A stretch of 64,000 bases of DNA from Planctomycetota bacterium (GTDB lineage Bacteria > Planctomycetota > Planctomycetia > Gemmatales > Gemmataceae). Position numbers and translations under genes: made by a program. Below, piece by piece: positions 35,649 through 53,345 of the stretch. The notes beneath the pieces were generated by a model, which worked only from the letters and a program-made list of their open reading frames with translations, searched no databases and was not told the DNA's origin. Each line of letters opens with the position of its first letter. The first letter of the stretch is position 1. The DNA is taken from the NCBI GenBank assembly GCA_016195405.1, contig JACPZP010000125.1, forward strand, positions 21,665 through 85,664, given 5' to 3'.

Positions 35649-35822
35649 CCTCCATAAACAAGCAAAAAAAAACCGACGTGGTCGAATACCAAGAGTATTC
35701 GACCACGTCGGCTTACTCGCTAACGGGCCGCCCGGGCGCTTTCCGGGCTGCCATTCATCTAGTCGTCCGACGACCTAAAAGACTGCAACTGTATTGTACG
35801 AACTTCTCAAGCTTGGCGGTGT

Positions 35823-36707
35823 TCATCCGCCCTTGACGGTGATCTTCTTCGGCTTGACAGCCTCAGCCCTCGGCAGGTGGATCGTTAGGACGCCGTTGAT
35901 GAGCTCGGCGGCAATCTTCTGCCAGTCGATGCGCTCGCTGATCGAAAAGGTCCGATAGAAATCGCCGACGCCGTATTCGGACAAGAGGTAATTCGCCCCT
36001 GCGTGGCGGGGAGCGCAGCGGCCATCGATGATGAGTTCGCCGTTTTCGAAACGCAGGTCCACGTCTTCCGGTTTCACCCCGGGAAGGTCGGCCAGCAACA
36101 GCGATTCCTCGTCGGTCTCCATGATGTCAACACGGGGAGTGAAAGAGAGGCCGAGCGCAACCACGGGTTTATCGAGCTCGGTACGCACTTCTATCTTGTT
36201 TGCGGGGATGTTCACGATATCGTTGACGCTGATGCGTCGGGGCTTGGCGGCTTCGTTCTTGGGCAAAGTCACCAAGAGGACGCCGTGTTCGAAACGGGCC
36301 TCGACCTTCTCGGCATCCACGTTCACGGGCAGCATGATCGTCCGGCTAAACTGGCCGAACCCGCGTTCTTGCCCGTACCAGGCGCCTTTCTCCGGGACGC
36401 CATTGTCCAGCGCGCCTTGGTCCAGCGCGTACCGCCGGCGCTCACCCTGGATAGTCAGCTGGTTGCCATCCGTTACGTAGATTTCGAGATGGTCGAGCTG
36501 CATGCCGGGTAATTCCGCCTCGGCGTAAACTTTGTCGTTGTCGCCCCATATGTTCACCGGCGGATAGGATTCCGCAAGGGCTGGGCCCGTTTCCGCGCCG
36601 AAGCGCCTGCAAACCCGGTTCACTTCTTCCTGAAACTCCCGCAATGGGCGCCACGAAAAGTTCTGCCAACGGGGTACCAGCATTTGTTGCTTGTTGGTCT
36701 TCATCAT
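35823..36707 (-). CDS. Small heat-shock protein with two tandem alpha-crystallin (Hsp20) domains
   Basis: 294 aa. Two ACD units, each ending in the GVLTV/I..PK motif (GVLLVTLPK; GVLTIHLPRAE). Confidence 0.85.
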   Translation of the reverse strand: MMKTNKQQMLVPRWQNFSWRPLREFQEEVNRVCRRFGAETGPALAESYPPVNIWGDNDKVYAEAELPGMQLDHLEIYVTDGNQLTIQGERRRYALDQGALDNGVPEKGAWYGQERGFGQFSRTIMLPVNVDAEKVEARFEHGVLLVTLPKNEAAKPRRISVNDIVNIPANKIEVRTELDKPVVALGLSFTPRVDIMETDEESLLLADLPGVKPEDVDLRFENGELIIDGRCAPRHAGANYLLSEYGVGDFYRTFSISERIDWQKIAAELINGVLTIHLPRAEAVKPKKITVKGG

Positions 36708-37082: not shown

Positions 37083-37676
37083 ATGTCCGACTGCCGGCCC
37101 GTAGACTCAAAGTTTATGACCGACGTCACCCAGATTCTAAATGCCATCGAGCAAGGCGACCCGCACGGCGCCGAGCAACTTCTGCAGGTCGTCTACGATG
37201 AACTGCGCAAATTGGCGGCGGAAAAGATGGCACAGGAAAAACCGGGGCAGACCCTAGAAGGCACGGCCCTGGTCCACGAGGCCTACCTTCGCTTGGTGGA
37301 CGTCAAGCGAGCGCAGCACTGGAACAGCCGCGGCCACTTCTTTGCCGCTGCCGCCGAAGCCATGCGGCGGATACTGATCGAAAGCGCGCGCAGCAAGGCG
37401 CGCGAGAAACGCGGCGGCAACTGGCAGCGTGTTGATTTTGAGGATCTCAACGTAGCGACTTCCGTCTCCCCCGATCAACTGCTCGCCTTGGACGATGCAC
37501 TCGTGCGGCTAGTGGCCGTTGACCGCGTGGCCGGTGAACTCGTCAAGCTTCGTTATTTTGCCGGTCTGGCTCTGGACCAGGCCGCCGCGGCCCTTGGCGT
37601 CTCGACGGCAACAGCTTATCGGCACTGGGCTTACGCGCGCGCGTGGCTGCACAGCGAACTGTTGAAAGAAACGTAG
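37083..37676 (+). CDS. ECF sigma factor (Planctomycete STK-associated type, ECF43-like)
   Basis: 197 aa. Sigma-2 (ALVHEAYLRL) and sigma-4 HTH (AAALGVSTATAYRHWAYAR). Immediately upstream of a Ser/Thr kinase gene. Confidence 0.85.
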   Translation: MSDCRPVDSKFMTDVTQILNAIEQGDPHGAEQLLQVVYDELRKLAAEKMAQEKPGQTLEGTALVHEAYLRLVDVKRAQHWNSRGHFFAAAAEAMRRILIESARSKAREKRGGNWQRVDFEDLNVATSVSPDQLLALDDALVRLVAVDRVAGELVKLRYFAGLALDQAAAALGVSTATAYRHWAYARAWLHSELLKET

Positions 37677-37759
37677 CCTGGGATTATTCTGCCGTCGTGA
37701 GAAAACCTCCCAGGCTACGTCGCACTGGTTAATAGAGGCGAAGCCCCTGTGAGGATGCC

Positions 37760-40546
37760 ATGAACGCTTTCGAAGACAATGCCAGGTCGATTTTCCTCGC
37801 CGCCCTGGAACGTGCGCCCGACCAATGGCCCGCTTTCCTGGACGAGGCCTGCGGCGACAATGCTGAGCTGCGGGCACGGGTCGATCAACTCCTGCACTCC
37901 CACCAGGCGATAGGCAGCATTCATGCGATAGGCAACATTCATGGGGGCGGCGCAGAGAAGCAAGATGGCACGCGCGACCAGTCCATGGCCGAGCGCCCCG
38001 GCGCCGTCATCGGCCCGTACAAGCTCCTGCAGCAGATTGGTGAAGGCGGCTTCGGGACGGTCTTCATGGCTGAGCAGACCCAGCCGGTGCAGCGCAAAGT
38101 CGCCCTCAAGGTCATCAAGCCCGGCATGGGCGGCCGCCAGGTGATCGCCCGCTTCGAGGCGGAACGACAAGCCCTGGCCATGATGGACCATGTCAACATC
38201 GCCCGCGTCCTCGACGCCGGGACAACGGAATCCGGCCTGCCGTATTTTGTCATGGAGCTGGTCCACGGAGTGCCCATTACCAAGTATTGCGACGACAACC
38301 AACTGACGCCGCGCGAGCGCCTGGAGCTGTTCGTGCCGGTGTGCCAGGCGATCCAGCACGCCCACCAGAAGGGCATCATTCACCGCGACATCAAGCCGTC
38401 CAACGTCATGGTCACGCTCTACGACGGCAAGCCGGTCCCCAAGGTGATCGACTTCGGCGTGGCCAAGGCGACCGAGCAAAAGCTGACCGAGCGGACCCTG
38501 TTCACGCAGTACGGCACCATGGTCGGCACGCTGGAATACATGAGCCCGGAGCAGGCGGAGATGAGCGGGCTGGGCGCCGACACCCGCAGCGACATCTACT
38601 CGCTGGGCGTGCTCCTGTACGAGCTCTTGACGGGCAGCACGCCGCTCTCCCACAAGCGGCTCAAGGAAGCGGCCTATGCCGAGATTCTCCGCATGATCAA
38701 GGAGGAGGAGCCGCCCAAGCCGAGCACGCGGCTCTCCGACTCGGGGGAAGCGCTGGCGTCGATCTCGGCGCATCGCCACATGGAACCGGCCAAGCTGACG
38801 AAGCTGGTCAAGGGCGAGCTGGACTGGATCGTGATGAAATGCCTCGAGAAAGACCGCAACCGCCGCTACGAGACCGCCAACGGCTTCGCCGCCGACGTGC
38901 AGCGCTACTTGGACGACGAGCCGGTGCTGGCTTGCCCACCGTCGGCAGTCTACCGGCTCGGTAAGTTTGTCCGCCGCAACCGCGGCCAGGTCATCGTCGT
39001 TGCCGTCGTGCTGCTCTGCTTGATCGGAGGCATGGTAGGCACGACCTGGGGCCTCATTCGTGCAATAAACGCAGAGGAACAGGCTAAGGACGATGCCAAG
39101 AAAGCGAAGCGCTCCGATGAGGAGGCGCGGGCGGTGCTCGGCTTCTTCCAGGAACGGGTTCTGTCAGCCCTGCGGCCGAAGGGCCTGGAGGGGGGGCTCG
39201 GCAAGGACGCCACGATTCGCGACGCCCTGGACGCGGCCGAGCCGGAGATCGAGAAGGCCTTCGCCGGACAGCCCCTCGCAGAGGCCACCATCCGCGACAC
39301 GCTGGCCACCAGCTACTGGCACCTCGGCGAAAACGAGGTAGCCATCCGGCAATATGAGCGCGCTCTGGCCCTTCGTCGCCAAGCTCTCGGTCCCAACCAC
39401 CGCGATACGCTCATGAGCATGAACAACCTCGCCAATGCCTACGGAGACGCCGGCCGCATCGCGGACTCGCTGGCGTTGCACGAACAAACACTCCGGGAGC
39501 GCCGTGCCCAGTTGGGGCCCGAGGACATCGATACGCTGGAAAGCCTGAACAACCTCGGCATGTTTTATATTGATGCCGGACGGCCTGCGGAGGCTGTGCC
39601 GCTGCTTGAGGAATCGTTCCGGAAAGCCAAAGCAAAGCTCGGCCCCGACCACGTGGATTCCCTGTCAGGCATGGGTAATCTGGTCCGGGGATACGTCGAG
39701 GCCGGCCGACCGACCGAGGCTTTGCCGCTTGCCCTGGAGGTGGTCGAACGCTGCACGCTCAAACTTGGGCTCGACCACCCGGGCACGCTCATCGCGCGGC
39801 AGAACTTGGCGCTGACTTACCGCGACATGGGTCGGCTAAGCGAAGCCTTGCCGCTGTTTGAGGATGTCCGCAATCGCGCCGAGGCTGTGGTCGGCGGTGA
39901 TCATCCCGGTGCGCTGAGCGGCATGTATTTCCTCGGCGTGGCCTATCAATGCATGGGCCGATTGGACGACGCCGGTCCCCTTCTGGCGGAGACACTCAAA
40001 CGGTGCAGAGCCAAGATAGGCTCGGACCACCGGAAGACGCTCATGGTCATCGCCGCCTTGGCCGCGACCTACGAGGAGGCCGGCGAATTGGGCAAAGCGG
40101 AACCCCTCGGCCAGGAGTTGGTGTCCGGCACTCGCCGGCGGCTCGGTCTGGATCACCCCGACACCAACGCAGCCCTGACCCAGCTCAGCCTGATCTTGGT
40201 GAAGCAGCACAAGCTCGACGACGCCGAGCCCCTCGCGCGCTAGGGCCTGGCCCTAGTGGAGAAGAAGCAGCCGGACAGCTGGCAGCGTTTCCAAGCTATG
40301 AGTGTGCTTGGCGCTGGCCTGCTCGCCCGGAAGAAATACGCGGAAGCCGAACCACTTCTACTCCAGGGTTACGCCGGGCTGCAGGAACGGGCCGCCAAGA
40401 TGCCGGCGCCCGCCAAGAAGCACCTCGGCGAGGCCCTTGAGCGGCTCGTGCGGCTCTACGACGCGGCCGGCCAGCCGGAGAACGCGGCCGAGTGGCGGCG
40501 GAAGTTCGAGGCGGAAAAGAGGGAAGAAAAAAAGCCGGGACCGTGA
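37760..40546 (+). CDS. Ser/Thr protein kinase with TM segment and C-terminal TPR array. Reading frame interrupted by a single in-frame TAG at 40241..40243
   Basis: Kinase motifs ([27 protein letters not shown]), TM ([14 protein letters not shown]), >8 TPR units. The TPR sequence continues in the same frame after the TAG (...[22 protein letters not shown]...). Confidence 0.85.
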
Positions 40547-40574
40547 CCCCGGCTGACGACCGCCCAAAAGAAAC

Positions 40575-40616
40575 GGCCGGTGAGGTCCTTACCGCCAAGC
40601 AAGCCCCTCACCGGCC
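40575..40616. repeat. Palindromic element GGCCGGTGAGG-(loop)-CCTCACCGGCC, copy 1
   Basis: 11-bp perfect inverted arms around a TCCTTACCGCCAAGCAAGCC loop. Related copies at 42253..42343. Confidence 0.8.
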
Positions 40617-40702
40617 CGGCACCGCCCCGGCGCTCGGTCTGCGCGCCGGGAACGATGTCTCTCCAATTTATCGCAGACCAATCTTCCCAAGGAGTCTTTG
40701 CT

Positions 40703-42229
40703 ATGCGTATTTCATTCTGGCTGCGATCCGCACGTTCCCTCTTCGTGCCGTCCGGCACCGAGAAAGGACATCGTCCCACACGGCTTCGTAAGCGGGCCTT
40801 GGCCGCCCCGTTGAGCGTCGAACGGCTGGAGGACCGGACCGTCCCCAGCACCTTTATGGTCGGCAACCTCAGCGACAGCGGCCCCGATTCGCTGCGGCAG
40901 GCAATCCTCGACGCCAACGCCAACCCTGGCGCCGACCTGATCCGCTTCGCCCCCGCGGCCCGTGACGGCACCATCGCGCTGGCCGGCGGTCAGCTGAGCA
41001 TCACGGACGATCTCATCATCGACGGCCCGGGCGCCGGCCGGCTGGCCGTCAGCGGCAACGACGCCAGCCGAGTCTTCCAGGTCGGCCGCGGCGTGGCCGC
41101 GAGCATCGACGACCTGACCATCACCCACGGGCGAGCCATCGGGCAGGGCGGCGGCATCTTGAATGCCGGCACCTTGACCCTGTCCCATGTCATCCTGTCT
41201 GACAACCTGGTCGTTGGCCTCCCGAGCGCGAGCGTCGTCGTGGACGCCTTCGGCGGCGGCATCTTTAACTCGGGAACCCTCACCGTCGGCCACAGCAGCT
41301 TCGTCCACAACCAGGCGACTGGCGGGGACGGCGCCATTGGCACCACGGGCAGCTCCGCACTCGGCGGGGCCATCATGTCCAATGGGACCGCGATCGCGCC
41401 GGCCACCGCCACCGTCAGTTACAGCAAGTTCCTCGACAACCACGCCATCGGCGGTGCGGCCGGCGCCGGCGCCAGCCGCGCCGGCGTGGGCGGCGCCATC
41501 AACAATGCTACTGGCACCTTCACCGTCAGCCACAGTGTGTTCCGCGACAATCAGGCCGTCGGCGGGCTCGACAATGGCGTCCCGGGCGGCTTCGGCGCGG
41601 GTGCGGGCGGCGCCATCTCGAACGTCGCGCGCTTTGGCAGCGCGTTCCTCTCCGTCAGCCATAGCACGTTCCTCGACAACCGGGCCGTTGGCGGGGCCGC
41701 CGGCAACGGCGGCAACGCGCAACCCGGCAGGGGCGGTGCGATCGCGAACTACATTTTCGGGGGGGTCCCGCAACCCGTGACGGTCACCGCGACCGCCCAC
41801 ATCGACCACAGCATGCTACTCGGCAACCAGGCCATCGGCGGTGCCGGCACCACGGGCGGAACCGGCCAAGGCGGCGGCATCGCGAATTTGAACGGCGGCG
41901 TCCTCTCTGTGTCGAACTCGTTGATCGCCTTGAACCAGGCCATCGGCGGCGCGGGCAACGGCGGCAACGGCGGCAATGGCCTGGGCGGCGGCATCTTCAA
42001 CGGTGGTCCCAACCAAACCGGCACGCCGAGCCTCACGCTCAACCACAGTATCGTCGCGCTCAACCGGGCCGACGGCGGCGTGGCAGTAGGCGGCGGCAGC
42101 GCCGGCCTGGGAGTCGGCGGAGGCCTCTACCTTTCGCCGGGCGGCGTCGCGTCCGCCGACCCGTGGACACTGATCTTCGCCAACGACGCTTCCACAAGCG
42201 ACGATGACGTGTTTGGAATTCTGGCCTAA
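40703..42229 (+). CDS. Secreted Pmp-like (GGAI / FxxN repeat) parallel beta-helix protein with Planctomycete ERLEDRTVPS N-terminal motif (start at MRISFW; ORF opens at 40580)
   Basis: Repeated GGAI (GGAIMSNG, GGAINNATG, GGAISNV, GGAIANY) and FxxN (FVHN, FLDN, FRDN) motifs, Gly-rich beta-helix rungs, N-terminal SVERLEDRTVPS. Confidence 0.75.
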   Translation: MRISFWLRSARSLFVPSGTEKGHRPTRLRKRALAAPLSVERLEDRTVPSTFMVGNLSDSGPDSLRQAILDANANPGADLIRFAPAARDGTIALAGGQLSITDDLIIDGPGAGRLAVSGNDASRVFQVGRGVAASIDDLTITHGRAIGQGGGILNAGTLTLSHVILSDNLVVGLPSASVVVDAFGGGIFNSGTLTVGHSSFVHNQATGGDGAIGTTGSSALGGAIMSNGTAIAPATATVSYSKFLDNHAIGGAAGAGASRAGVGGAINNATGTFTVSHSVFRDNQAVGGLDNGVPGGFGAGAGGAISNVARFGSAFLSVSHSTFLDNRAVGGAAGNGGNAQPGRGGAIANYIFGGVPQPVTVTATAHIDHSMLLGNQAIGGAGTTGGTGQGGGIANLNGGVLSVSNSLIALNQAIGGAGNGGNGGNGLGGGIFNGGPNQTGTPSLTLNHSIVALNRADGGVAVGGGSAGLGVGGGLYLSPGGVASADPWTLIFANDASTSDDDVFGILA

Positions 42230-42252
42230 AGCGAAAGCCAACCAAGAAATGC

Positions 42253-42343
42253 GGCCGGTGAGGTCCTTACCGCCAAGCAATCGTCGATGGCAAGGAAAGA
42301 CGACTGTTGAGGTCTTAAACGCCAAGAAACCTCCTCACCGGCC
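42253..42343. repeat. Palindromic element GGCCGGTGAGG...CCTCACCGGCC, expanded copy with duplicated inner unit
   Basis: Same 11-bp arms as 40575..40616. Inner GTGAGGTCCTTACCGCCAAGCAA unit plus a diverged second unit TTGAGGTCTTAAACGCCAAGAAACC. Confidence 0.8.
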
Positions 42344-42532: not shown

Positions 42533-43912
42533 TCATTTCAACCGTTTGACGTCGATCAGATGGACCCCGCCGGAGCCGCCAACGGCCAGCGTTTTTCCGT
42601 CGGGATGGAACGCCAGCCCGCCAACCGCGCCGCTGGGCAACATCAGCATTTGCGGGGTGCGGTTCGGGTTGGCCAGACTGATGATCAGCATGCGCGGCTG
42701 CGGCAGGTCCTCCGGATCCGGGTTGCGCCTTATCGCTTTCAGATCAAGCTTCGGAAAGCCCGCCACCACGACATGCCGGCCGTCCGGGCTGAGCGCTGCC
42801 TGGCCGAACTGAATTTCGTCGAGCGGGACCGTGCGGGCAACCTTCTTACCGACTAAATCCCACACGATCAGCGGTCCGCCGGCACGCCCAATCATCGTTC
42901 GGCCATCCGCGGCAAAAAGCGGCGGTGCGAAATACGCGAGCGGGTCGGCGTTCTTCGGTCCGGGGACGCGAGCGACCTCCTCCAGCGTGTCGGGCGCGAC
43001 AATCACCAAGGTCTTGGAGTCCGGTTGCAGTCGCCGTAGTGAGGAAACCAGCCACTTGCCGTCCGGCGACAGGTACACGCCGTCGAAGAAGGTCTTGTCA
43101 TCGGGCGCGTCCAAGGTCTTCAGGGCTTTTTCCGCGGCGAGATCGTACTTCACGAGCGCGGCGTTCACTTTTCCGTCCGGCTGAAACTGGTATGTCGTCA
43201 GATAGGCCGTTTTCCCATCTTGGGTAAACACGGGATAGGCATGAGTGTTCAACAGCGTCTTCGACTTCTTGCTCGCCAGGTCCACCAGCTCCGCGGCCTG
43301 CGGTTGATTCCTCGAGGTCGCGGCCGTGTAGGAGCCGATCGTGTTGACGTAGGCAGACTTGCCGTCGGGGAGGAGGAACACATTCGACGGCCCGCGATCA
43401 CGGAAGACGATCGAATCTTTCAGCTTGCCCGAGACAGCGTCGTACAGGTCGATGCGGCCATTGATCTCTAACCGGTCGCTCACCTTGCCGTCCTTTTCCT
43501 CGCGGACGACCTTGCGCGTCTTCACGTCCACCAGGATCGTCTTCCAGTCGGGCGTCGGGTTGGCGTAGTTCCAGTTGTTGCGCAGCCCGCTTGGGGTATC
43601 GAAGCGAGCCGTCTCCTTCCAGTTTGCCGTGTCCCAGAGCTGGACAACGCCGGAGGGGTATCCCGCCATCATCATGCGCTTGCCGTCGGGCGAGAAGCGG
43701 ACGTCGCTGATGGAGGCCTTGCGGTCGGGATGAGGCAGGGTCTTGACCAGACGCTCCGTGACCGGGTCGCGTTTTGGCCCCTTCTTGGGCGCCAGGACGG
43801 TGATGTCGTGACGGGTCGGGGCCACCTTCGCTTCGGGCCAGGCATCGAACGAGATGACGACTTCGGCGGCGCCCTCGAACTCGGCGGCCCGAACCGGGCC
43901 GTGCAAGTTCAC
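42533..43912 (-). CDS. Beta-propeller (PD40/WD40-like) repeat protein, GTG start overlapping the upstream ORF stop (GTGA)
   Basis: 459 aa. Repeated SPDGK / LPDGK / HPDGK blades. Confidence 0.75.
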   Translation of the reverse strand: MNLHGPVRAAEFEGAAEVVISFDAWPEAKVAPTRHDITVLAPKKGPKRDPVTERLVKTLPHPDRKASISDVRFSPDGKRMMMAGYPSGVVQLWDTANWKETARFDTPSGLRNNWNYANPTPDWKTILVDVKTRKVVREEKDGKVSDRLEINGRIDLYDAVSGKLKDSIVFRDRGPSNVFLLPDGKSAYVNTIGSYTAATSRNQPQAAELVDLASKKSKTLLNTHAYPVFTQDGKTAYLTTYQFQPDGKVNAALVKYDLAAEKALKTLDAPDDKTFFDGVYLSPDGKWLVSSLRRLQPDSKTLVIVAPDTLEEVARVPGPKNADPLAYFAPPLFAADGRTMIGRAGGPLIVWDLVGKKVARTVPLDEIQFGQAALSPDGRHVVVAGFPKLDLKAIRRNPDPEDLPQPRMLIISLANPNRTPQMLMLPSGAVGGLAFHPDGKTLAVGGSGGVHLIDVKRLK

Positions 43913-47893: not shown

Positions 47894-48271
47894 GGTAAGC
47901 TCCGCAATTCGTTGTCGCTTTCGCCGGTGCCGCCACTCGACACCCTAATTATAGTCTATAGACCATACGCCTTGGCCTAGCGTATGCCGCATTTGCTTTC
48001 AAGCAATCCGTTTGGGTCAACGGGTCAAGCGTGCATTCTCAGTATCGCGGCGTTTCGGAATTCTCGCGAATTCCGCTACGAGTAGCTCTTCCGGCGTAAT
48101 TGCCTGTGCGTCCTGATGTCATTATGTTCAGATCTTCCTTTTTTTCGCAAAGCTCCGCTTTCCAGAATAGAATAACCCACCAGTAGCCTAATCGCGCGCC
48201 TCACGGCGTGAGAGCGGGGGAACCAACTGGGGCGGCTTTGGCCGCCTCTGGGGCGTAGGTCCGCAGAAGTT

Positions 48272-48327
48272 GTAGGACGGATTTGCAATCCGTCACTTCG
48301 ACTGGACGGTTTGCAAAACCGTTCTAC
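48272..48327. repeat. Second pair of GGACGG...CCGTCC REP-like palindromes (GTAGGACGGATTTGCAATCCGTCAC and TGGACGGTTTGCAAAACCGTTCTAC)
   Basis: Same family as 848..915. Confidence 0.7.
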
Positions 48328-48456
48328 ATTGCGGATCGGGGTACTTTCAAGCCCTAGCCCGTCAGCTAACCCCGTCGGCAGGTCCGGGCGCGTTGCCTGG
48401 GCCGTAATTGAAAGGGCACCCCCGTCTTTCTCCGTCCCGACGAAGAGCCCCATCTC

Positions 48457-53273: not shown

Positions 53274-53345
53274 AGCCGCCTCAGGGATTTGAACCCTGGA
53301 CCCCCGCTTTACGAAAGCGGTGCTCTACCGCTGAGCTAAGGCGGC
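53274..53345 (-). tRNA. tRNA-Thr (anticodon CGU)
   Basis: Reverse complement reads GCCGCCTTAGCTCAGCGGTAGAGCACCGCTTTCGTAAAGCGGGGGTCCAGGGTTCAAATCCCTGAGGCGGCT: 7-bp acceptor stem, D-loop AGCTCAGCGGTAGAGC, anticodon loop TTCGTAA, T-arm GGTTCAAATCC. Confidence 0.85.

Follow-up and report, generated by a model that had tools for sequence, protein, structure and literature searches.

A conserved, probably structured leader in front of genes for planctomycete proteins with an N-terminal surface signal

A stretch of 64,000 nucleotides (nt) from a bacterium of the Gemmataceae (Planctomycetota; GenBank assembly GCA_016195405.1, contig JACPZP010000125.1, positions 21,665 to 85,664 of the forward strand; this whole stretch is called the window in the following) contains a gene for a repeat-rich protein of 508 amino acids (aa) with a palindrome on each side. 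What are these palindromes, and what do they have to do with the gene between them? The initial annotation considered them as REP-like (repetitive extragenic palindromic) terminators or as parts of a cassette resembling a miniature inverted-repeat transposable element (MITE), which could mobilise or phase-vary the gene, and regarded the protein as similar to the chlamydial polymorphic membrane proteins (Pmp). According to our analysis, the upstream palindrome is very likely the first hairpin (P1) of a conserved leader of approximately 130 nt, and neither a REP nor a MITE. The locus as a whole is best explained by a surface-protein gene behind a structured leader, which would serve common post-transcriptional control. 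To this reading we assign a probability of roughly 0.6.

Both palindromes are copies of GGCCGGTGAGG...CCTCACCGGCC, at positions 40575-40616 and 42253-42343, and thus the gene is indeed flanked by one repeated element. The upstream copy has arms of 11 bp and ends 86 nt from the ATG, while the downstream copy begins 23 nt past the stop codon. A direct repeat of 39 nt, which takes in the 5' flank too, is 90% identical between the copies. The reported internal duplication of the downstream copy was found again as a third, degenerate unit (42291-42329, 69%). The core GAGGTCCTTACCGCCAAG is present three times in 64 kb, where 0.03 occurrences are expected, and the 11-mer arm nine times in the window (1.99 expected). 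Since this copy number is far above chance, the two palindromes are considered real. Both hairpins fold better than shuffled sequences (z about -2.8), and within the window the palindromic element is found at these two sites only.

The conserved leader extends from about 40566 to 40702 and consists, in this order, of an A-run, P1, a linker, a second hairpin (P2), a loop of 23-24 nt, the heptamer GCAGACC, a Shine-Dalgarno (SD) sequence and the ATG. The consensus of its 5' part is AAAnAAAGC-GGCCGGTGAGG-(loop with CCGCCAAG)-CCTCACCGGCC-CGGCAnCGCC, and that of its 3' part is CCGGCGC-TCGGTCTGC-GCGCCGG-(23-24 nt with CATTGTATC at the end)-GCAGACC-(7-20 nt)-AAGGAG-(5-8 nt)-ATG. In the window, leader and gene are composed as follows (A1 is an alignment of leader copies described below):

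40563-40574, plus strand: A-rich run CCCAAAAGAAAC directly 5' of P1; in the minus-strand reading, a U-rich run after the P1 hairpin
40575-40616, plus strand: P1 hairpin with the arms 40575-40585 and 40606-40616 and a loop containing the conserved CCGCCAAG
40617-40626, plus strand: linker between P1 and P2, CGGCACCGCC, moderately conserved in A1
40627-40649, plus strand: P2 hairpin, formed by CCGGCGC (40627-40633) and GCGCCGG (40643-40649), with the loop TCGGTCTGC; the near-invariant core
40636-40642, plus strand: 5' arm of a third helix (P3), GGTCTGC, within the P2 loop; partner 40673-40679
40650-40672, plus strand: loop L3 of 23 nt, 5' half variable, 3' half CAATTTATC (consensus CATTGTATC)
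40673-40679, plus strand: 3' arm of P3, GCAGACC, 30 nt downstream of the P2 loop, with which it would form an H-type pseudoknot
40689-40694, plus strand: Shine-Dalgarno sequence AAGGAG, 8 nt ahead of the ATG; AAAGGAG is conserved in A1
40703-40849, plus strand: N-terminal signal-like region (aa 1-49), starting with MRISFWLR and ending with LSVERLEDRTVPS, disordered in the AlphaFold model
40850-42202, plus strand: predicted right-handed parallel beta-helix (aa ~50-500) of nine GG[AG]I/FxxN-type units

The leader of the window has a predicted folding energy of -54.4 kcal/mol (z -3.8). Across 121 copies, A makes up 45-83% at the positions -9 to -3 relative to P1, in DNA with approximately 60% GC, and in the same copies no positional conservation was detected beyond -12 upstream of P1, so that no fixed promoter is visible. 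A few copies have an extra hairpin in the linker between P1 and P2. The exact 21-mer 40629-40649 is unique within the window. Of 105 copies, 84 have an L3 of 23-24 nt, and this set revealed no consensus structure or helix inside L3. A scan of the window with Rfam 15 at gathering thresholds detected a tRNA and a c-di-AMP (cyclic di-adenosine monophosphate) riboswitch alone, both elsewhere. At E<=10, the region 40500-40760 matched only Scr3920, with 21.7 bits at a gathering score of 88. Nothing relevant emerged when the full-text literature was searched for planctomycete RNA motifs and for the sequences of core and arm. We regard the leader as a candidate for a new RNA family whose general kind is known, namely a structured 5' leader, an antisense small RNA (sRNA), or both.

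The leader is widespread in planctomycetes. Orthologues of the gene in three other loci (L001, L002 and L003 in our collection, with 91, 79 and 77% protein identity) are preceded by a nearly identical leader in its whole length. In L003, it is also found nearly identical before a tandem paralogue and before an unrelated Calx-beta gene. A scan for the 21-nt core in one genome per species (185,579 species) yielded at least 120 loci. Among the matches listed, approximately 95 are full copies from Gemmataceae, Fimbriiglobus, Isosphaeraceae, Pirellulaceae/Pirellulales and Planctomycetaceae metagenome-assembled genomes (MAGs), and the remaining ones are chance matches in GC-rich coding DNA of other phyla. 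A covariance model of the leader (R1) gave 166 matches in 725 kb of collected loci, approximately 40 of them without the exact core, and revealed tandem arrays with a spacing of about 2 kb, for example four copies in L025. Altogether, about 150 leader copies were aligned. Every copy is oriented with its gene and ends 10-25 nt ahead of an SD sequence and a start codon. In the window, R1 detects one full copy (40562-40711, 148.7 bits). Its third match there (37662-37757, 17.9 bits) is a different hairpin, located between genes for an extracytoplasmic function (ECF) sigma factor and a kinase, and was rejected as a member. Several typical leader copies with planctomycete-type proteins downstream were also found in bins labelled Alcaligenaceae, Alphaproteobacteria or Acidocella (L014, L022, L049, L059, L061 (CAZQXG01), L016, L050, L055 (CAZNSL01), L011, L065); mis-binning or mislabelling is the likely cause.

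Does the element accompany other genes for secreted proteins, as the initial annotation had proposed to check? It does so almost exclusively, and this is our key result. A ubiquitous terminator unlinked to any gene class, which had been envisaged too, does not agree with this tight link to signal-bearing genes. In 50 of 72 downstream proteins (plus two to three variants), the motif [LIVMF][ED]x[LIVM]E.R begins at aa 20-40. About 73% of the leader copies precede such proteins, here called LExLEDR-type, and the rest precede proteins with classical hydrophobic (Sec) signal peptides. The mature parts of the LExLEDR-type proteins comprise beta-helices, Calx-beta, FG-GAP or delta-60 repeats and giant proteins, and many leader-borne proteins start with M-x-F-x-S-W-L-R. 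Seen from the side of the protein, 77 of 83 LExLEDR-type open reading frames (ORFs) in the collected loci have a leader match just upstream, a proportion which is biased upwards because the loci were collected through the leader. In loci collected through the protein, the leader is present before two of three (L002) and three of three (L003) such ORFs. The sole LExLEDR-type ORF of the window is the 508-aa gene, and the sole full leader precedes it. A family of approximately 160 aa with a classical signal peptide (MKR.SS.AGLALAV...GEQVPFKG.L.GDV) is also located behind the leader (L016 2578.., L056, L073, L093, L095, L105). Thus, the leader is not strictly tied to the LExLEDR signal. Still, a nearly one-to-one link between a leader and a sorting signal across a phylum, spanning at least four families, is unusual, and we found no mention of a link between this signal class and a conserved nucleotide leader in the searchable literature. 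The leader could be used as a sharp nucleotide marker for the planctomycete secretome and offers a handle on its co-regulation or targeting.

Planctomycetes export many surface proteins, giant and small ones, via an N-terminal signal without a hydrophobic core. For Rhodopirellula, the signal RRLxxExLExRxLLA was reportedly described by Studholme in 2004. The ORF at 40703-42229 on the plus strand, with the ATG at 40703 and the stop codon ending at 42229, encodes a protein whose N-terminus MRISFWLRSARSLFVPSGTEKGHRPTRLRKRALAAPLSVERLEDRTVPS is likewise basic and lacks a hydrophobic core. The motif LSVERLEDRTVPS at aa 37-49 (nt 40811-40849), which had been recognised as a planctomycete sorting-like motif from the outset, holds up well: LSVERLEDRTVP at aa 37-48 (L-S-V-E-R-L-E-D-R-T-V-P) fits the consensus LxLExLExRxxP, which Seeger et al. 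obtained for Tuwongella immobilis, a member of the Gemmataceae, starting from the Rhodopirellula signal, PF07595 (PMC8567305). In T. immobilis, 52 genes carry this consensus. Twenty of their products were detected in the proteome, eight of them only in the sodium dodecyl sulfate (envelope) fraction, and the signal-bearing products are enriched in the envelope fraction (PMC8567305).

The rest of the protein is built of nine repeat units of 35-46 aa each, all opening with GG[AG][IL]. Most of the units contain [ST]x[SG]HSxFxxNxAxGG. The motif GG[AG][IL] is found nine times, strict FxxN four times and [FLIV]xxN 13 times, and 20% of the residues are glycine. The repeats reported by the initial annotation are therefore present, while the length of the protein is 508 aa and not 509. 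The AlphaFold (AF2) model calculated on the family alignment (mean predicted local distance difference test, pLDDT, 87.7; predicted template modelling score 0.86) shows a regular right-handed helix of three-stranded coils from aa ~50 to ~500 of 508, and aa 1-41 are disordered (pLDDT <50). A homologue search yielded 2409 matches overall, from Gemmataceae and Planctomycetia MAGs and from metagenomes. More than 120 of them are full-length orthologues (~508 aa) with 63-91% identity, all annotated as hypothetical, and the precomputed Pfam field of the 120 best homologues is '-'. With good confidence, we consider the gene product a cell-surface or secreted right-handed beta-helix protein of the planctomycete-specific signal class. 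Since class and signal are already known, this family is an unremarkable addition to a known class of proteins, and the interest of the locus lies in its leader.

The proposed structure of the leader was evaluated in two alignments: A1 comprises 91 copies found via the core and A2 comprises 150 copies and is model-guided. Pairs were counted on a structure that we specified, since loop gaps in the raw MAFFT alignment led RNAalifold to draw P1 wrongly. In A1, 95.9% of the cells pair, in comparison to 32-47% with slid partners, and none of 500 shuffles was as high. In A2, compensatory changes were found in 12 of 18 pairs, with 100 doubly changed cells compared to 22.5+-3.8 in shuffles. In P1, 4 of 11 pairs (A1) and 8 of 11 pairs (A2) are compensatory, with AU<->GC/CG in 23-40 cells as an example. 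The cells of P3 are paired to 96.9-98.7%. Here CG is replaced by UA four to six times and UA by CG four times, and C.A never occurs. At the P3 pair 77/114, T77.G114 was observed ten times, T77-A114 four times and C77.A114 not at all. Divergent copies even contain double compensations in P3, such as GGTTCGC/GCGGACC. Judged by these substitutions, the polarity of P3 is that of plus-strand RNA. P2 is near-invariant, also in 42 copies which were found by the model rather than by the core pattern. This invariance neither supports nor contradicts pairing, and the rare changes in P2 favour the plus strand 9 to 3.

Based on these observations, we propose the following mechanism. The leader would be transcribed together with the mRNA, and in its folded form, with the 5' hairpin and a pseudoknot adjoining the ribosome-binding site, it would be recognised by one common factor acting in trans. 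This factor may be a protein, a small ligand, or a complementary small RNA transcribed from the other strand of the same element. In this way, dozens of surface-protein mRNAs per cell could come under joint control of stability or translation. That the leader acts as sense-strand RNA we consider slightly favoured. Other explanations for the conserved block were dropped. A leader peptide or upstream ORF beginning at a semi-conserved NTG does not fit, because the same codon is TAT, TAA, TAC or TAG among the copies. As a protein-coding remnant or upstream ORF, the leader would lose its frame through the indels in the loops. An integron attC-like site, judged by eye only, was discarded since the R'/R'' core sites misfit and there is no integrase nearby.

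Several points weigh against our preferred reading. The core columns of A1 were fixed by the way in which the copies were collected, A2 leans towards the covariance model, and the copies are not phylogenetically independent. The invariance of P2 fits recognition by a protein, as DNA or by a trans-acting RNA equally well as folding. In P1, about 20 A.C mismatches face about 12 G.U when read on the plus strand; this excess suggests that P1 may act on the minus strand. A sense-only model also leaves unexplained a -10-like TAnAAT on the minus strand and the terminator-like appearance of P1 with its U-run. That P1 and P2 are part of the mRNA is a presumption, and no conserved promoter was seen upstream of P1. 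We found no expression platform: pairing of the SD sequence with a pyrimidine stretch in L3 lacks covariation. SD sequestration by this stretch was rejected, since the value of -8.0 kcal/mol is similar to that of permuted sequences (-7.85+-0.25), and 531 of 2000 permutations were as good. Last but not least, the export of the 508-aa protein is assumed from its class, and the protein itself does not score on either of the two signal models, PF07595 (Planc_extracel) and NF012209 (LEPR-XLL), which can be attributed to its ending TVPS instead of xLL. Sister proteins with the same leader and the ending ...LEDRxLL reach 18.5 bits on NF012209 (cut-off 17), and on PF07595 the sister proteins sharing the leader reach 13-23.1 bits, which is under the cut-off of 25.5.

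Of the competing explanations, the one that survives best starts from the minus strand. The element may mainly encode a small RNA of about 95 nt, cis-antisense to the leader. We hold this for possible but clearly less probable than a sense-strand function, with which it can coexist. The candidate -10 box of this RNA is the following:

40665-40670, minus strand: hexamer TAAATT, candidate -10 box of an antisense RNA; family consensus TA(C/G/T)AAT

Transcription of the putative antisense RNA would begin a few bases past the TAnAAT box (40670->40665), continue across the complement of P2 and terminate at P1 and its U-run. The hexamer has a fixed position, 3 nt from the P3 arm and about 95 nt upstream of where P1 and its U-run end. 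It reads TACAAT in 45, TAGAAT in 21 and TATAAT in 5 copies, so that, of 105 copies, 71 have TA.AAT and 83 have TAnnnT; the third position varies freely, as it does in the -10 boxes of sigma-70. In addition, 82% of the copies have a G at -14. Such boxes are in use in this organism: TTCGCA-18-TAGAAT (48144-48173) lies right before the c-di-AMP riboswitch, and promoter-like sites are enriched (9 compared to 3.7+-1.8). On the minus strand, GC and then a U-rich run come after P1, terminators of the canonical hairpin-plus-U type are in use in the genome, and a second minus-strand terminator (40533-40554) comes directly after P1. The A.C excess in P1 points to the same strand, and a covarying P1 next to an invariant core is what is expected of a terminator joined to a shared pairing region. 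As all loci share one core, the antisense RNA could pair in trans with every other leader, and since its hairpin loop would be GCAGACC, it could compete with the 3' arm of P3 for the P2 loop of the mRNA. On the other hand, a -35 box is missing, matches to one are rarer and the best -35 scores lower than in shuffles, and of an extended -10 region only the G at -14 is conserved. Moreover, the 3' arm of P3 would be upstream of the antisense promoter, yet it covaries with the P2 loop in plus-strand polarity, and the changes in P2 also speak for the plus strand.

If both strands are used, it is tempting to speculate that each signal-bearing gene (approximately 50 per genome) shares a bipartite module of a pseudoknotted sense leader and an antisense sRNA of about 95 nt. 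We put this forward only tentatively. If true, the identical cores would create a genome-wide, all-against-all network of antisense RNAs and leaders, which could set the output of the surface proteome or couple the signal-bearing mRNAs to an unusual export route. The defining feature of such a regulon would be an RNA leader co-evolving with a protein sorting signal.

Less likely still is that the conserved block acts as DNA, as promoter or operator for a dedicated sigma factor or a regulator of surface proteins. Candidates would be found among the many pairs of ECF sigma factor and Ser/Thr kinase, such as the pair directly upstream, and the neighbourhood of ECF sigma factor gene (37083-37676), kinase gene and leader gene is conserved with L003. 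The invariant core, the strict spacing of 23-24 nt and the fact that no other promoter is visible would suit a DNA site, as would the GGAAC in the subfamily to which the window copy belongs. However, GGAAC is not conserved across the copies, and a single sigma/kinase pair cannot account for dozens of copies over many loci. Both the asymmetric wobble pattern and the compensatory substitutions of P1 and P3 bear the signature of RNA. Among specific promoter types, an ECF-type promoter GGAAC-N17-CG was rejected because GGAAC is present in only about one third of the copies, and a sigma-54 promoter (GG-N10-GC in the linker) because it is lost from many copies.

Regarding the protein, the proposed membership in the chlamydial Pmp family by common ancestry in the Planctomycetes-Verrucomicrobia-Chlamydiae (PVC) group is very improbable. 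It rests on the nine GG[AG]I and the FxxN-type motifs, whereas at E<=10 neither PF02415 (Chlam_PMP) nor TIGR01376 (POMP repeat) matches the protein or any of 70 family members, and the sorting signal is a different one. More generally, none of the families in Pfam and NCBIfam, TIGRFAM models included, matches the 508-aa protein at E<=10, and PF13229 (Beta_helix) gives a weak match in 11 of 70 aligned family members. In agreement with the initial annotation, there is no autotransporter barrel: the AF2 model contains no C-terminal barrel, the beta-helix extends to about aa 500, and there is no autotransporter Pfam match either. A sequence search of solved structures returned VexL alone (E=0.3). 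Besides autotransporter passengers, the top structural neighbours are lyases, epimerases and tailspikes, with 9-20% identity. The lesson for annotation is not to infer homology to Pmp from GGAI/FxxN repeats in PVC bacteria.

The least probable idea of all is that the palindromes are repeats of the REP or MITE type by which the gene could be mobilised or phase-varied, or else generic terminators unrelated to a gene class. The element is indeed a repeated palindrome with many copies, blocks of homology between genomes have their borders at it, so that recombination between copies may shuffle cassettes, and the internally duplicated downstream copy looks like a terminator on the minus strand. However, the element keeps one orientation and a constant distance from the start codon, the conserved unit of 130 nt is more than the palindrome, no target-site duplications were found at the borders and no transposase or REP-associated tyrosine transposase (RAYT) gene nearby, no U-run follows the hairpin on the plus strand, the association with one protein class is tight, and the element is kept at the orthologous loci in L001-L003 (77-91% protein identity), where no presence/absence polymorphism, inversion or excision was seen. 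Thus, the suggestion of a mobile cassette has to be given up, and for phase variation we see no support: the locus is stable between species, and inversion is not possible because the palindrome copies are direct repeats. Of the REP-like terminators, the terminator part is plausible for the downstream copy on the minus strand, and the REP-like part is contradicted by the fixed position and orientation. In our view, the palindromes which flank genes here should be annotated as leader hairpins of tandem cassettes and not as mobile elements.

Why then is there a second palindrome behind the gene? The relevant features in its surroundings and upstream of the leader are:

42242-42343, plus strand: decayed second leader copy (5' flank plus P1 at 42253-42343); P2, P3 and the SD sequence are missing
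42238-42343, minus strand: downstream hairpin followed by GCATTTCTTGGTTGGCTTTCGCTTT, fold -46.2 kcal/mol; terminator-like site 42258->42238
40533-40554, minus strand: second terminator-like hairpin with T7, directly after P1, overlapping the stop codon of the upstream plus-strand kinase gene

The downstream P1 is broken after 42280 by an insertion of 49 nt, which consists of a small hairpin and the degenerate arm/loop repeat (42291-42329). R1 scores it with 29.6 bits, with an insert of 52 nt and 64 model positions deleted. The nucleotide homology with L001 and L002 spans 40571/40574 to 42279/42280, beginning where the leader starts and stopping exactly where the insertion lies. The downstream copies of L001 and L002 possess a short, uninterrupted P1 with part of a leader behind it and fragments of other family genes after that, and in L003 family genes are arranged in tandem, each with its own leader. 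Because the homology stops at the insertion point and L001 and L002 retain a partial leader, the downstream copy of the window is what remains of a leader that belonged to a neighbouring gene since lost. The bracketing of the gene by palindromes is then explained by the fact that family genes are often in tandem, each behind its own leader. A U-run is absent after both hairpins on the plus strand, and on the minus strand both are followed by a U-rich sequence. The downstream hairpin is located 190 nt past the stop codon of the convergent gene 42533-43912 (minus strand), of which, by its sequence and position, it is likely the intrinsic terminator. With about 20 nt, the loop exceeds the size usual for terminators. 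A role in termination is probably why the downstream P1 was retained.

In the upstream neighbourhood, the order ECF sigma factor gene (37083-37676), Ser/Thr kinase gene and leader gene is syntenic with L003, which argues that the gene is not a mobile cassette. The orientation of upstream genes as deduced from open frames is unreliable, since high GC gives shadow ORFs. Some further observations concern this region. The ECF sigma factor gene is followed by a hairpin GTAGCCTGGGA...TCCCAGGCTAC (37674-37719) with the stop codon within the stem, and the kinase start comes next. The sequence GTCGCACTG.TT.ATAGAGGCG ahead of the kinase start is common to L003 (2588-2610). The sigma-kinase intergenic region of L003 (2330-2480) contains a long hairpin (GGTCAGGCTTTCCAGCCTGAC...) flanked by two copies of TTGCGCCTGCGAGTTTTACACACACAC, which represents another repeat family. 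The Ser/Thr kinase gene with tetratricopeptide repeats (TPR; 37760-40546, plus strand) has an in-frame TAG at 40241-40243. The ORFs 37760-40243 and 40256-40546 are in one frame and TPR-like sequence runs across the stop codon; a pseudogene, read-through or an error in the sequence are all possible explanations. The terminator-like site 40533-40554, when read on the plus strand, is an A7 run and then a hairpin, which is the same layout as that of P1. A textbook intrinsic terminator, a perfect 20-bp hairpin with T8, is located at 35670-35714 (minus strand) downstream of an Hsp20-like gene (35823-36707, minus strand). The c-di-AMP riboswitch (RF00379, 49 bits) is at 48175-48395 on the plus strand and the tRNA gene (RF00005, 70.6 bits) at 53274-53345 on the minus strand. 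Finally, in L001 (4740-5247) and at the C-terminus of the L014 protein, a conserved C-terminal module ...NAAGWGWFVD.TP.DDSEFTTPGNQGEQ.RMDLL.V..HE.GH was noticed, with which large LExLEDR-type proteins repeatedly end. What is left of it in L001 is a fragment joined to a truncated leader.

How does the locus compare to known systems? The Rhodopirellula-1 motif, which is not in Rfam, is a multi-copy planctomycete hairpin located 5' to genes, with covariation, many A-C pairs and an ambiguous strand (Weinberg et al. 2010, PMC2864571). In being a multi-copy hairpin upstream of genes and ambiguous in its strand, it is similar to P1. An identity of the leader with this motif was rejected, because Rhodopirellula-1 has another sequence and architecture (AACAA..GAUGAAC-stem-GUUAUC) without the P2/P3 core. 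The protein shares the basic N-terminus without hydrophobic core and the diversity of passenger domains with the planctomycete cell-surface signal class; sister proteins with this leader obtain scores on both signal models, the 508-aa protein on neither. Its relation to chlamydial Pmp and to autotransporter passengers such as Bordetella Vag8 is limited to fold and repeat style: identity is at most 14%, and it differs by having no translocator barrel, no match to their models and another N-terminal signal.

Pseudoknotted RNAs in 5'-untranslated regions are known from the SAM-II, preQ1-II and fluoride riboswitches, and a stabilising hairpin at the 5' end is known from ompA. Like the former, the leader has a predicted H-type pseudoknot with highly conserved nucleotides adjoining the ribosome-binding site, and like the latter, it has a hairpin at the 5' edge of the conserved region. 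In contrast to metabolite riboswitches, it has no evident ligand or expression platform, P2 does not covary, and the copy number and the link to exported proteins of any function are unusual. Antisense RNAs encoded in leaders control CopT by CopA in plasmid R1, hok by Sok, and RNA-IN by RNA-OUT in IS10. The likeness to these systems lies in a predicted RNA of about 90 nt with two stem-loops and an intrinsic terminator, which is encoded inside a complementary leader 30-130 nt before the start codon. Those are single-locus systems, whereas here dozens of near-identical copies per genome are located before unrelated genes, and the antisense RNA is a predicted one. With REPs, bacterial interspersed mosaic elements (BIMEs) and MITEs, the leader has in common short, GC-rich intergenic palindromes in many copies. 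However, REPs and BIMEs are mostly found at 3' ends or in convergent gaps, in either orientation and without a link to a gene class, while the leader described here has a fixed position at the 5' side of its gene and is linked to one class of genes.

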